This document shows, one piece after another, positions 48,416 through 52,948 of a DNA stretch of 64,000 nucleotides. Positions within the stretch are counted from its first letter, which is position 1. Every line of letters begins with the position of its first letter. Under the pieces are notes generated by a model. That model was not told where the DNA came from. It did not search any database and saw only the letters and a list, made by a program, of their open reading frames with translations. The DNA lies in contig CAXTJU010000004.1 of NCBI GenBank assembly GCA_964244655.1, forward strand, positions 2,516 through 66,515, read 5' to 3'. This stretch comes from an uncultured Acetobacteraceae bacterium (lineage in GTDB: Bacteria > Pseudomonadota > Alphaproteobacteria > Acetobacterales > Acetobacteraceae). Both the position numbers and the translations under genes were made by a program.

Positions 48416-49194
48416 ACGCGCTTGATGGGCTGGCCTGGCTCGGGCGGGCGGCGCTCGGCGTGTGCCGCGGCACCGGGTCGGTGGCGCTGTTCGCGGCGTC
48501 CGGCGTGTCCCACATCGTGCGCCCGCCGCTGTACGGCCGCATGTTCGGCCGCGCCTTCATCGAGTTCTCGTATTTCAGCCTGCCCGTGGTGGCGCTGACG
48601 GCGATCTTCTCCGGCATGGTGATCGCGCTGCAATCCTTCACCGGCTTCTCCCGCTTCAACGCCGAGAGCGCGGTGGCCAACATCGTCGTGCTCTCGGTGG
48701 TGCGCGAGCTGGGCCCGGTGCTGGCCGGGCTGATGGTGGCCGGCCGCGTGGGCGCCGCCATGGCGGCCGAGCTTGGCACCATGCGCGTCACCGACCAGAT
48801 CGACGCGCTCGGCACCCTCTCCACCAACCCGATGAAATACCTAGTGGCGCCCCGGCTGCTGGCCGGCACGCTGGCGCTGCCGCTGCTGGTGGTGGTGGCG
48901 GACATCCTGGGCGTCATGGGCGGCTTCATCATCGCCACCGCCAAGATCGGCCTGAACCCGGCGAGCTACCTCAACACCACCCTGGGCTTCATGACGGCGG
49001 CCGACGTGGCCAGCGGCCTGGCCAAGGCGGCGGTGTTCGGCTTCATCATCGCGCTGATGGGCTGCTTCTTCGGCTACAACAGCCGCGGCGGCGCGCAGGG
49101 CGTGGGGGCCGCCACCACCTCGGCCGTGGTGACCGCCTCCATCCTGATTCTCGCCGGCGACTACCTGCTGACGGAGCTGTTCTTTGCCCGATAG
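48412..49194 (+). CDS. mlaE: MlaE-family ABC permease
   Basis: VRELGPVLAGLMVAGRVGAAMAAELGTMRVTDQIDAL, GAQGVGAATT. Confidence 0.94.
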   Translation: MNALDGLAWLGRAALGVCRGTGSVALFAASGVSHIVRPPLYGRMFGRAFIEFSYFSLPVVALTAIFSGMVIALQSFTGFSRFNAESAVANIVVLSVVRELGPVLAGLMVAGRVGAAMAAELGTMRVTDQIDALGTLSTNPMKYLVAPRLLAGTLALPLLVVVADILGVMGGFIIATAKIGLNPASYLNTTLGFMTAADVASGLAKAAVFGFIIALMGCFFGYNSRGGAQGVGAATTSAVVTASILILAGDYLLTELFFAR

Positions 49195-49201
49195 CGCCGG
49201 G

Positions 49202-49972
49202 ATGGCCTTGCCGAAGATCCGCATCCGCGGCCTGCGCAAGCGCTTCGGCGACAAGCAGGTGCTGGACGGCGTGGACCTGGACGTGATGCCCGGCACCTCC
49301 ACCGTGGTGATCGGCGGCTCCGGCACCGGCAAGTCGGTGCTGCTGAAGTCCATCCTGGGCCTGGTGGAGCCCGACGAGGGCACCATCGAGATCGACGGCC
49401 GCGATCTGCTCCGCATGGGCCGCCGCGAGCGCGAGGCCGCCCGCCGCCAGATCGGCATGCTGTTCCAGGCCGCCGCGTTGTTCGACAGCCTGCCGGTGTG
49501 GGAGAACGTGGCTTTCGGCCTGCTGGCGCAAGGCGGCATCACCCGCGAGGCGGCCCGCATCCGGGCGGACGCGGTGATGGGCCAGGTCGGCCTGGCGCCG
49601 AGCGTGGGCGACCTCTCGCCCGCGGAGCTGTCCGGCGGGATGCAAAAGCGCGTCGGCCTCGCCCGGGCCATCGCCGCCCAGCCGCATATCTTGTTCTTTG
49701 ACGAGCCAACCACGGGGTTGGACCCGATCATGGGCGCGGTGATCGACGGATTGATCGTGGATTGCGTCAAGCGCCTGGGCTCGACGGCGATGGCGATCAC
49801 GCACGACATGGCGTCGGCCATGCGGATCGGCGACCGGATCGCGATGCTGTATCGGGGGCGGATCGTGTGGGAGGGGCCGCCGGAGGGGTTGATGGCCAGC
49901 GGAAATGCGGTGGTGGACCAGTTCACGCATGGGCGGCGGGAGGGGCCGATTCAGATGGAGTTGCGGCGGTAA
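49202..49972 (+). CDS. mlaF: MlaF-family ABC ATPase
   Basis: GGSGTGKS, LSGGMQKRVGLARA, DEPTTGLDP. Confidence 0.93.
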   Translation: MALPKIRIRGLRKRFGDKQVLDGVDLDVMPGTSTVVIGGSGTGKSVLLKSILGLVEPDEGTIEIDGRDLLRMGRREREAARRQIGMLFQAAALFDSLPVWENVAFGLLAQGGITREAARIRADAVMGQVGLAPSVGDLSPAELSGGMQKRVGLARAIAAQPHILFFDEPTTGLDPIMGAVIDGLIVDCVKRLGSTAMAITHDMASAMRIGDRIAMLYRGRIVWEGPPEGLMASGNAVVDQFTHGRREGPIQMELRR

Positions 49973-49993: not shown

Positions 49994-51059
49994 TTATTCC
50001 TTCCAAGATGATAGGGTGGATATTCTATGACCTATTAGCTCTCCCTCCTTTAGAGCTTTATGCAACAACTTCAAGAATTCTGGATTTATACTCCAATCGC
50101 ACTGATATCGGTCAACACGTAACGTTATAGCCAAGTTGCTCTTGTTTAGAATAGTGCACATCGTACGTTTAAGATCTGCATGGTATATCAAGTGAAACTC
50201 TAACTCATGAGGCTGGTCAGGCGAAAACCCATCCCACTTTTGGCGTCCCGATCGTTTGAGGAAATCAGGTATAAAGATTGGCAAAGGTGCACTTTTAGCC
50301 ATCTTGTCGAGGTAGAATATTAATAAATCATGTTCTCGATAACCTGAAACATAGGCAGGACCATCAAAGACGTTATCGCCATTGAGTACCCATACTTTCA
50401 CCGCGTAAGGCGTTTTACTAAATAATGATTGCTCAATGCTTGTAAGCTCGAACCAACCTCCGAAGCTAAAGAAGAAGTTATTTTGAGTGACAATGTCACC
50501 CATCAGCATTAATGTAATCCTATCATAAAATAAACGAATAAAACTTGAGTATTCATCATCAAACAATCTGTCATCTACATCCTCAATGCCGGGAAATGAT
50601 CCTGTGCCATCATAGATTATAGACGCAGAAGATTTACGAAGATGTTTGGTATTTAAAGATTCCTGAACTATTTTACTACCTACATCACGAGAAACTATAA
50701 GGGATATCAAGTCAATCTCAGCCAGCGTTAAACCTGACTGCTCAACTATATCGTCGAGTGTTTTCCACAGACGTAGCTCTGACAATCTTGCAAGTTCTTT
50801 AATAATTTTTTGATTCAAATAAGGGCGAGCCTGCCCAAAGTGCAAATGAGTTTACACCGAAGGACATGGTTTTCTGAATATTTCCTACAAACTGATATTT
50901 TTGAGACTTAACGTTTTTCGGTGGAACAGACCTGGAGAAAGACAACCTAGAAAGCGGTAATTCCAAATCGGCTCTGCCAATCCTTTTTGGCGCTGATAGT
51001 GCAATGTCAGAAATAGTCAGGATTCCATCAAACCGCTGAATAGATGCAATGATGGTCAC
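49994..51059 (-). pseudogene. AT-rich proteasome-beta/HslV-like (Ntn-hydrolase) gene split by a +1 base in an A6 tract at 50806-50811
   Basis: GTG 51059 gives MTIIASIQRFDGILTISD (T1..D17). K..WAG spacing of 14 matches K33/G47. Removing one A joins ESK to IIKELARL of the 49994..50845 ORF, giving ~354 aa. Confidence 0.65.
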
Positions 51060-51265
51060 TGAGGCATACTCGTTGGTTTCCTCAAATCTTTGGTAATAGC
51101 GCACGTGCTTGATGTTGGCTGGAATGGCAGCGGCGCATCAGGGTTCTCACCATCCTCAATCTGGTGACGGCGTATGTCTTCCTCCGTCGTCGCCGCGACC
51201 TTAGCGCGGTCCACTTTGGGGTAGCTCGCCTTAATTTGCTCCAACGTCATTGGCTCGCGTGTCAT
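51056..51265 (-). pseudogene. N-terminal fragment of an XRE/HigA-type antitoxin
   Basis: MTLEQIKASYPKVDRAKVAATTEEDIRRHQIEDGENPD resembles the N-termini of such antitoxins; no HTH follows. Confidence 0.55.
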
Positions 51266-51340
51266 ACGGTTTGATTGTTCCTATCTGCAATCCGGGTCGC
51301 GATGATCCAGCGCACATCTATCCCGAGCCTGTCGAAATGC
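51262..51340 (-). pseudogene. Possible C-terminal remnant of a BrnT-type toxin
   Basis: DVRWIIATRIADRN resembles the BrnT ..RIISARRA.. tail; ATGA overlap with the antitoxin fragment. Confidence 0.35.

Positions 51341-51544: not shown

Positions 51545-52948
<1,404 letters not shown>

Follow-up and report, generated by a model that had tools for sequence, protein, structure and literature searches.

Proteasome-type threonine proteases are usually regarded as housekeeping degradation machines coupled to unfoldases. Among their relatives, Anbu is encoded in a conserved operon together with ATP-grasp, alpha-E and transglutaminase-like proteins, and connectase is already a biotechnology tool. Fuchs, Alva and Lupas (2021) described many divergent, uncharacterised proteasome homologs, grouped in 22 families (PMC8665760). 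Here we describe a disrupted gene of this superfamily in a stretch of 64,000 nucleotides from an uncultured, lichen-associated Acetobacteraceae bacterium (assembly GCA_964244655.1, contig CAXTJU010000004.1, positions 2,516 to 66,515), which is referred to below as the window. The gene is located between mlaF and radA and is interrupted by a one-base frameshift; the protein inferred after its repair has the catalytic residues and the predicted fold of proteasome subunits. With a probability of roughly 0.8, we consider that the locus was inactivated recently and that it represents a proteasome-like (MEROPS T1-type) N-terminal nucleophile (Ntn) hydrolase which is encoded by a single gene and moves horizontally.

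Three of the catalogued families, RPC, DPH ('divergent') and PMI-5, are found only in Proteobacteria, are free of propeptides and keep the catalytic residues (PMC8665760). RPC has a C-terminal domain unlike any known structure and is missing helix H2, and PMI-5 carries two insertions, an unstructured one at S3/S4 and another at H3/H4; among the newly catalogued families, only PMI-5 and PMI-6 have an insertion at S3/S4 (PMC8665760). The lid that gives connectase its specificity sits at this same S3/S4 site, helices H1 and H2 are absent from connectase, and extra C-terminal domains occur both in connectase and in several of the catalogued homologs (PMC8665760). The bacterial proteasome homolog BPH is a compact subunit of ~200 amino acids (aa) that forms double heptameric rings (PMC5777263).

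The ORF listing and the six-frame translation of the window place two overlapping open reading frames (ORFs) in different frames on the minus strand of the segment 49994-51059, namely 50799..51104(-) and 49994..50845(-). Deletion of one base from the homopolymer at 50806-50811, which is T6 on the plus strand and hence A6 in coding direction, yields a single frame of 354 codons, which starts at GTG 51059-51057 and shares GTGA with the stop codon TGA 51058-51056 of the upstream ORF. The N-terminus of the repaired protein reads V/M-T-I-I-A-S-I-Q-R-F-D-G-I-L-T-I-S-D18 and is followed by Q62-K63...W75-A76-G77 with 14 positions from K to G, by Y-D-G-T-G with G151-T-G153, and by F199-G-G-W-F-E204. 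A preliminary description, made from the letters of the stretch, had proposed that the two fragments join into a protein of ~354 aa when one A of the A6 run is removed and that the GTG start overlaps the TGA; the reconstruction agrees with it, including the motifs and their spacing. The disrupted gene has a GC content of 0.40 compared to 0.70 for the rest of the window, and its neighbours are mlaF (49184-49972) and radA (51545-52948). The 5' fragment holds the equivalents of Thr1, Asp17, Lys and Gly47 while the rest of the fold is missing from it, and the 3' fragment is without Thr1 and therefore incapable of Ntn hydrolase action alone. The parts of the gene are listed below, with conservation counted in an alignment of 113 full-length family members that are ~20% identical to the query.

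49994..51059, minus strand: whole disrupted gene, 354 codons plus stop after removal of one A; proteasome-like Thr1 Ntn hydrolase with an extra C-terminal domain
50806..50811, minus strand: A6 homopolymer (T6 on the plus strand) with the one-base insertion; A5 in the ortholog, the sole alignment gap in the gene
50799..51059, minus strand: 5' fragment as now read, 86 codons followed by TAA at 50799-50801
49994..50845, minus strand: 3' ORF fragment, 283 aa from TTG, with the G-T-G loop, FGGWFE and the C-terminal domain
51054..51059, minus strand: start codon GTG (51059-51057) and Thr codon ACC (51056-51054); no propeptide
51006..51008, minus strand: codon for Asp18 (proteasome Asp17), present in 113/113 members, at the end of the modelled strand 12-18
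50898..50987, minus strand: family-specific insertion, residues 25-54, with a nearly invariant Pro35, between Asp17 and the catalytic Lys
50829..50873, minus strand: Lys63-Gly77 (Q-K...W-A-G), counterparts of the catalytic Lys33 and of Gly47 in the oxyanion hole, canonically spaced by 14
50600..50608, minus strand: G151-T152-G153 loop, equivalent to proteasome Gly128-Ser129-Gly130 by conservation and position in the model
50444..50464, minus strand: F199-G-G-W-F-E-L205, by conservation the late 'GG' of proteasome-type subunits with a family-specific Glu204
49997..50407, minus strand: beta-rich C-terminal domain, residues ~218-354, by secondary structure of the model; conserved Trp223, Tyr240, Leu245 and His289

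The closest homolog of the repaired protein (P0001) is intact, 354 aa long and 96% identical over 100% of the length. Its gene is located at the same site, in the order radA - gene - mlaF/mlaE/alr, on a 110-kb contig (L001) of a metagenome-assembled genome (MAG) from an uncultured Acetobacteraceae. The window and this contig are 97% identical in DNA sequence, and the lone gap within the gene falls in the homopolymer, which is A6 in the window and A5 in the ortholog; the alignment confirms that the shift required to restore the frame is +1, as had been predicted. The lichen-metagenome run X1 contains 100% of the sampled words of window positions 50300-51300, and in the independently built Logan contigs of this source run the tract is also A6, at a word depth of 14.8. 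The A5 allele is found in Logan contigs of the runs X6 (lichen, depth 41), X3 and X5, all gap-free across the tract. These alleles were judged from assembled contigs, which lose rare variants. As a separate observation, the Logan contigs of run X3 ('organism A', with an allele that is ~95% identical) break beside the homopolymer and leave ~35 bases uncovered (window 50772-50807), which could be due to variation within the sample or merely to low depth (6-10x).

The ratio of nonsynonymous to synonymous substitution frequencies (dN/dS) between the lineages of the window and of the intact ortholog was 0.16 for the gene, 0.04 for radA and 0.06 for mlaF, which indicates that the gene was under purifying selection during most of the divergence. 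The dS value of the gene (0.12) was of the same order as those of the flanks (0.17-0.20), and the island was therefore probably already present in the common ancestor. At the conserved sites of V65M, A82E and F123S, polarised where close homologs permit, it is the window lineage that has the derived state, and the window copy also has Ser66 within a hydrophobic strand. Codon 82 (50814-50816), located just 5' of the A-run, is GAA (Glu) in the window and GCA (Ala) in the intact ortholog. Since Ala82 is found in 105 of the 113 members and aligns with the conserved Ala following the oxyanion Gly of proteasome subunits, A82E is probably a second damaging change in the window copy.

The extra A in the A5 run truncates the protein after residue 86 and makes the gene a pseudogene. 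The comparison of alleles and the derived changes indicate that this pseudogene is genuine and of recent origin, and speak against both an error of assembly and a programmed shift. Whereas the preliminary description had left the choice between a pseudogene, a phase variant and an assembly error, only the pseudogene stands up well, the other two being disfavoured by the contigs and by the derived changes. Programmed frameshifting was considered and rejected, since the orthologs are in frame with A5 and recoding is not conserved. Several other copies are broken: one has two frameshifts and an in-frame stop (L015, 329-1384) and another has one frameshift (L018, 339-997), while in protein alignments P0007 appears to be out of frame at its N-terminus and P0008 is internally deleted, with ~32 residues including the G-T-G loop gone. 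Pseudogenisation thus seems to be unusually frequent in the close subfamily.

Conservation across the family follows the catalytic scheme of the proteasome. The residue equivalent to Thr1 (Thr2) is kept in 112 of the 113 members and is Ser in the remaining one, and in all of them the Thr or Ser is immediately preceded by the start residue (M, V or L). Asp18, Lys63, Gly151, Gly153 and Gly200 are invariant. Nearly invariant are Thr2, Ile4, Pro35 (110/113), Gly77 (108/113), Ala82, Gly201 (102/113), Glu204 (111/113), Lys215 and Tyr240, and strong conservation is also seen for Ser22, Gln62, Trp75, Trp223, Leu245 and His289. Position 152, flanked by the two invariant Gly, is occupied by Ser or Thr in 109 members, and 12 or 13 residues intervene between Lys63 and Gly77 in every member (spacing 13-14). 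The homologs thus keep the Thr1/Asp17/Lys/Gly set that the preliminary description had read from a single broken gene.

The structure of the intact ortholog was predicted with AlphaFold2 using the 113-sequence alignment, which gave a mean pLDDT of 93.0, a pTM of 0.92 and 296 residues with pLDDT >90. A model made with the 8 close homologs alone was poor (pLDDT 43.8) and was not used for the fold search. Foldseek searches of the PDB yielded 432 matches at E<=1e-3, of which the best 50 were all 20S proteasome subunits with a probability of 1.00, mostly beta but also some alpha subunits, at sequence identities of 8-17%; the Ntn fold, which had been set beforehand as the test for the repaired protein, was thereby recovered, in the form of a predicted alpha-beta-beta-alpha sandwich. 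Among the predicted viral structures of BFVD, the top match was a phage 'proteasome beta type-2 subunit', with phage HslV among the next few.

Each conserved motif has the proteasome-canonical position in the model. Asp18 closes strand 12-18 (S2) and Lys63 opens strand 64-68, Gly77 closes strand 71-77 directly before helix 79-94 (H1), the G-T-G loop lies between strand 145-150 and helix 154-159, and G200-G201 precede strand 203-209 and follow the long helix 170-189. In a local comparison with HslV using hhalign, M1-T2...D18 of the family was placed on M1-T2...D18 of HslV, i.e. MTTIVSVRRNGHVVIAGD on MTIIASIQRFDGILTISD, with 18 residues in register. A permissive collinear alignment with HslV, in which the 29-residue insertion is gapped, brought Thr1, Asp17, Lys33, A-G (oxyanion strand) and G-S-G into register. 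Short, non-significant, in-register matches were obtained with an E. coli HslV, with a T. acidophilum beta subunit and with an alignment of 20 HslV sequences. The E. coli sequence used is 99% identical to a database entry, and the HslV alignment is so uniform (86% mean identity) that it is not a fair test; in global mode, hhalign gave no match. On the motifs and the predicted fold together, we take homology to the proteasome-type Ntn hydrolases to be established.

The family is sparse and sits outside the curated models. Only 8 close relatives of the repaired protein were found among 5.8e9 clusters, at 39-48% identity if the ortholog is excluded. A profile search of 1.84e9 representative proteins retrieved 191 at E<=1e-3, one per 50%-identity cluster; most of these are ~350 aa long and nearly all start with M-T-[LIV]-I. 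A wide-alignment profile search of the 5.8e9-cluster database, the reach of which is limited by its word index, gave just 8 proteins, with one further named member as the sole addition, and the wide alignments contained no stretch conserved enough for pattern scans. The few members present in NCBI, all annotated as 'hypothetical protein', are from an Alphaproteobacteria MAG, Asticcacaulis, Sphingomonas, Mariprofundus and a Pseudomonadota MAG, and all six taxonomically named members originate from Proteobacteria. A scan of GTDB genomes recovered only the same Acetobacteraceae MAG, and a scan of JGI metagenomes four short loci, two of them broken.

No credible match to Pfam, NCBIfam or PADLOC was obtained for any of the 113 members, including 0 matches to the 5027 models of PADLOC-DB 2.0, and the one member scanned against PHROGs had no match. 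The repaired protein is not matched by the Pfam Proteasome model (PF00227), which gave E = 0.079 for one of the 113 members, far from the cut-off, and the family profile matched nothing among PDB sequences at E<=10. By sequence, the protein is thus neither HslV nor Anbu nor a typical 20S beta subunit, as had been anticipated. The superfamily is well known, and the family itself is uncurated in Pfam, NCBIfam and PADLOC and has no solved structure. As judged from these searches it is too divergent for curated sequence models, which also applies to the 22 catalogued families (PMC8665760).

HslV (ClpQ) resembles the family in its Met-Thr start without a real propeptide and in its proteasome-type Ntn fold, but the HslV and Proteasome models of NCBIfam and Pfam do not match the family. 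While HslV is ~175 aa long, the 354-aa protein described here is twice as long, owing to ~29 aa inserted ahead of the Lys and a C-terminal domain of ~135 aa, and its H2 region is shortened. Furthermore, HslV has an adjacent hslU, which is not seen beside the gene in 12 related loci, and is a near-universal housekeeping gene, whereas the family is patchy and mobile. The 20S beta subunits (archaeal PsmB, actinobacterial PrcB and eukaryotic beta1-7) are the best structural matches among the matches listed and share the complete Thr1/Asp17/Lys33/Gly47/Gly-Ser-Gly set with a Lys-to-Gly spacing of 14, but the family differs from them in having no propeptide and in having the extra insertion and C-terminal domain. 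No genes for alpha subunits or for Pup/Mpa-type accessory proteins were present among the Pfam-annotated neighbours.

Anbu and BPH share with the family the Thr1 Ntn fold, the lack of a propeptide and the lack of an AAA+ partner gene. They are however without such an insertion or C-terminal domain, and there was no sequence match to either; none of the Pfam families of the Anbu operon (ATP-grasp, alpha-E, transglutaminase-like) was found among the neighbours in any locus. Connectase, an archaeal protein ligase of the DUF2121/MJ0548 type, is likewise stand-alone and unfoldase-free; it too has residues inserted at the hairpin that precedes the catalytic Lys, and some variants possess an additional C-terminal beta domain (PMC8665760). 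It differs in that its lid consists of two helices and H1 is absent, whereas the model of the present family has H1 at 79-94 and a mostly unstructured insertion. Connectase is also restricted to methanogenic archaea and has MtrA as substrate, neither of which applies here; the named members are all from Proteobacteria.

The occurrence of the named members in Proteobacteria is shared with RPC, DPH and PMI-5, as are the missing propeptide and the retained catalytic residues. The C-terminal domain of the family may be compared with that of RPC, its reduced H2 region with the missing H2 of RPC and its S3/S4 insertion with that of PMI-5, and no written description fully fits it; the large H3/H4 insertion of PMI-5 is not seen in the model. 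By their written descriptions, none of the catalogued families joins an S3/S4 insertion with a C-terminal domain as this family does (PMC8665760). A look-up of 30 family representatives by accession alone found none to be WP_140207863 (RPC), WP_074989469.1 (DPH) or WP_179179973.1 (PMI-5). At least one member (WP_156347849.1) was in NCBI before the study by Fuchs et al. 2021, so the family may be one of the 22; on a comparison of descriptions only, we put the chances that it has been catalogued before, as one of the uncharacterised families, at somewhat below even, which is substantial.

Two regions set the family apart from a plain proteasome subunit. Between Asp18 and Lys63 there are 32-44 residues in all members compared to 15 in the proteasome, i.e. 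17-29 extra residues. The insertion (25-54) is the part of the model with the lowest confidence, with block pLDDT values of 64-88, and is modelled as mostly unstructured. The H2 region is cut down to two short helices (101-107 and 112-115) in the model. The C-terminal domain of ~135 residues is beta-rich, with strands within 218-324 and a helix at 326-337, and had no match to Pfam or to PDB sequences. An insert of ~30 aa before the Lys and a further ~130 aa at the C-terminus had been noted from the letters, close to the ~29 and ~135 aa found.

The intact protein begins with Met-Thr, and methionine aminopeptidase would strip the Met and expose Thr1. Since the start codon directly precedes the Thr codon in every member, removal of Met would expose the nucleophile with no need for a propeptide. 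Thr1 would act as the nucleophile with the help of Asp17 (Asp18 here) and Lys33 (Lys63 here). The oxyanion hole would be made by Gly47 (Gly77), while the N-terminus would be kept in position by the G-S/T-G loop of residues 151-153. The conserved catalytic set suggests that the intact members are enzymatically active. As neither an ATPase nor any further partner gene is conserved in the vicinity, the task of an unfoldase in selecting substrates or in regulation would fall to the insertion and the C-terminal domain; their positions, together with the missing partner, suggest that they gate the active site or choose the substrate.

We also examined the neighbourhoods of twelve related loci and, together with the window, compared GC contents over 13 loci. 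The GC content of the gene was lower than that of its flanks in all 13 loci, by 1 to 30 points, in agreement with the earlier proposal of horizontal acquisition. An all-against-all BLAST of the neighbours revealed no gene that is conserved beside it in the 12 loci. An adjacent AAA+ unfoldase was not found in the window or in any of the twelve, which extends the earlier remark that no ATPase partner lies nearby. Member P0155 is flanked by a dense defence island on a mobilisable element (L005 1-16990; GCA_040384045.1, JAWVHH010000075.1), with an MmeI-type restriction-modification enzyme, Schlafen/AlbA2-HATPase, a DEAD helicase, T5orf172, GmrSD, RadC, a MobA relaxase and a Toprim/DUF3631 primase. 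Of the other member loci, one has IS110 beside Mu-like baseplate genes, one directly follows genes for a prophage tail protein, holin and endolysin, one is on a Rep3 plasmid carrying BrnT/BrnA, and one contains relaxase/MobC genes and a gene for a DUF4420 PD-(D/E)XK protein. In four loci, as in the window, the gene is found among ordinary chromosomal genes with at most small unannotated ORFs flanking it. The gene is thus carried along by plasmids, prophage ends, integrative elements and defence islands, or forms a low-GC island of its own.

The gene directly upstream in two loci (L011, 1773-2378, abutting; L003, 1543-2235) encodes a protein of 200-230 aa with R-N-x-[IL]-A-H-G, which resembles the R-x4-H of HEPN proteins. 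The two proteins are weakly alike (z = 3.4, with 2/300 shuffles reaching the score) and have no match to Pfam. A role as partner was considered and set aside as the evidence is weak, and this gene may be an occasional partner or a coincidence.

In the window itself, the ORF upstream of the disrupted gene is as follows.

51056..51265, minus strand: 69-codon ORF, an N-terminal remnant of a helix-turn-helix (HTH) antitoxin as identified by tblastn

The match, at 46% identity over residues 4-53 of 109, is to a 'helix-turn-helix domain-containing protein' on a plasmid of Acetobacter pomorum, the gene for which adjoins a gene for a 'BrnT family toxin'. The remnant keeps the N-terminal ~50 residues while the HTH half is absent, and no remnant of a BrnT toxin was detected upstream of the fragment. 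The toxin-antitoxin remnant context proposed in the preliminary description is thus a truncated antitoxin of the sort that accompanies BrnT toxins. With this remnant at the same place, the radA-mlaF intergenic site appears to have received mobile cargo repeatedly. Around the island, no flanking repeats, att sites, promoters or terminators were seen beyond what chance would give. For this genome, the appropriate annotation would be a frameshifted pseudogene of a proteasome-like Ntn hydrolase adjoining a truncated antitoxin.

Several observations weigh against a recently inactivated, mobile proteasome-like hydrolase, and they bear on both the lesion and the protein. The A6 tract might not be a fixed lesion but an artefact of assembly or sequencing, or a phase-variable switch in a gene that is functional in at least part of the population, and low-level +1 slippage or slippage in transcription on A6 might restore some product. 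The lesion sits in a homopolymer, the classic place for both, related strains differ at the tract merely as A5 versus A6, and since contigs drop rare variants such heterogeneity would be invisible in them, so that a minority subpopulation with the gene in frame may have gone unseen. We nevertheless consider this explanation improbable, since the separate Logan assembly of the source run also has A6 at a depth of ~15, six As are few for slippage to be efficient, and the out-of-frame arrangement is not preserved in any ortholog. Moreover, A82E, F123S and Ser66 are non-conservative at conserved positions, as expected after loss of function, and other copies of the family carry multiple breaks. 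The likeness to the proteasome could in turn be spurious, with chance motifs and an over-confident model of an unrelated protein. The sequence-only comparison with HslV is not significant alone (hhalign P ~0.005, probability 6-10%), the Pfam Proteasome model stays below threshold even for its best member, and the best 50 of the 432 structural matches have TM scores that are moderate (0.40-0.63, target-normalised) at root-mean-square deviations of 4.6-9.5 A. Against this stand five independent motifs, in order and at canonical spacing and secondary-structure positions, in 113 sequences at ~20% identity, along with the uniformly proteasomal top of the Foldseek results. The rise in pLDDT from 44 with 8 sequences shows that confidence came with evolutionary information and not by default, and we find a chance resemblance scarcely credible. 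The activity of the members is a prediction from sequence and model, and roughly half of the examined loci are unremarkable, with the gene among ordinary housekeeping genes. Finally, none of the 113 members matched a PADLOC model, two scans of IMG/VR viral contigs and one of PLSDB plasmids yielded no relative, and a role in defence, while plausible, is guilt by association drawn from the neighbourhoods only.

Mobility, low GC content, the neighbours and the frequent decay fit a role in inter-genome conflict, in which the protein would be a phage-triggered or toxic protease acting in defence, in abortive infection or as a toxin; we regard this as the likeliest single role, although with the odds against it. 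No later report linking such proteins to phage defence was found in the literature that could be searched. A more specific version, in which the family lies outside the 22 catalogued homologs and is a single-gene mobile conflict effector, a Thr1 protease silenced by a connectase-like lid and a C-terminal sensor until a phage or plasmid cue activates it, is speculative and in our view unlikely. Such an effector would cleave proteins of the host or the invader, no earlier proteasome-type protease would have had a part in bacterial immunity, and its cost would explain the frequent pseudogenisation. The intact members might instead be sequence-specific transpeptidases or ligases, or processing enzymes for a single substrate, working as monomers or dimers like connectase, with the insertion as lid and the C-terminal domain as substrate clamp. 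The insertion at the Asp17-Lys33 hairpin is family-wide and corresponds to the S3/S4 site of the signature lid of connectase (PMC8665760), extra C-terminal domains also occur in connectase and in several of the catalogued homologs, the loci contain no unfoldase partner, and Glu204, Lys215, Tyr240 and His289 are conserved outside the canonical set, suggesting an enlarged specific site. However, connectase is without H1/H2 whereas the model has a clear H1 (79-94), it is archaeal and methanogen-specific, and no conserved neighbouring gene offers itself as a candidate substrate. The present evidence fits hydrolysis as well as transfer; overall, we consider an enzyme of this kind doubtful. A housekeeping, self-compartmentalising ring protease of the Anbu/BPH/HslV type, which merely looks foreign and the loss of which is incidental, would have the same fold and catalytic residues, several loci are among housekeeping genes, and BPH and Anbu likewise have no adjacent AAA+ unfoldase (PMC8665760). 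This is very improbable given the sparse and patchy distribution, with 8 close relatives in 5.8e9 clusters, the GC content below that of the flanks in every locus, the repeated adjacency of mobile-element and defence genes and the frequent pseudogenisation. In addition, the examined loci contain no Anbu-type operon or HslU, and large insertions and C-terminal domains may not suit stacked rings, as discussed for other homologs (PMC8665760).

The family is of interest since it keeps the full catalytic set yet is stand-alone, AT-rich and horizontally moving, with restriction systems, NTPase conflict systems, toxin-antitoxin pairs and prophage lysis cassettes among its neighbours. If the intact members are active, they would provide either a new scaffold for a specific protease or ligase or an effector, in defence or as a toxin, of a kind not seen before. 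The intact ortholog with 96% identity makes the family directly accessible to experiments.

As a minor observation, an inverted repeat of 27 nucleotides with 81% complementarity links 50816-50842, in the Ntn hydrolase gene near the frameshift, to 51212-51238 in the antitoxin remnant, which is probably due to chance.

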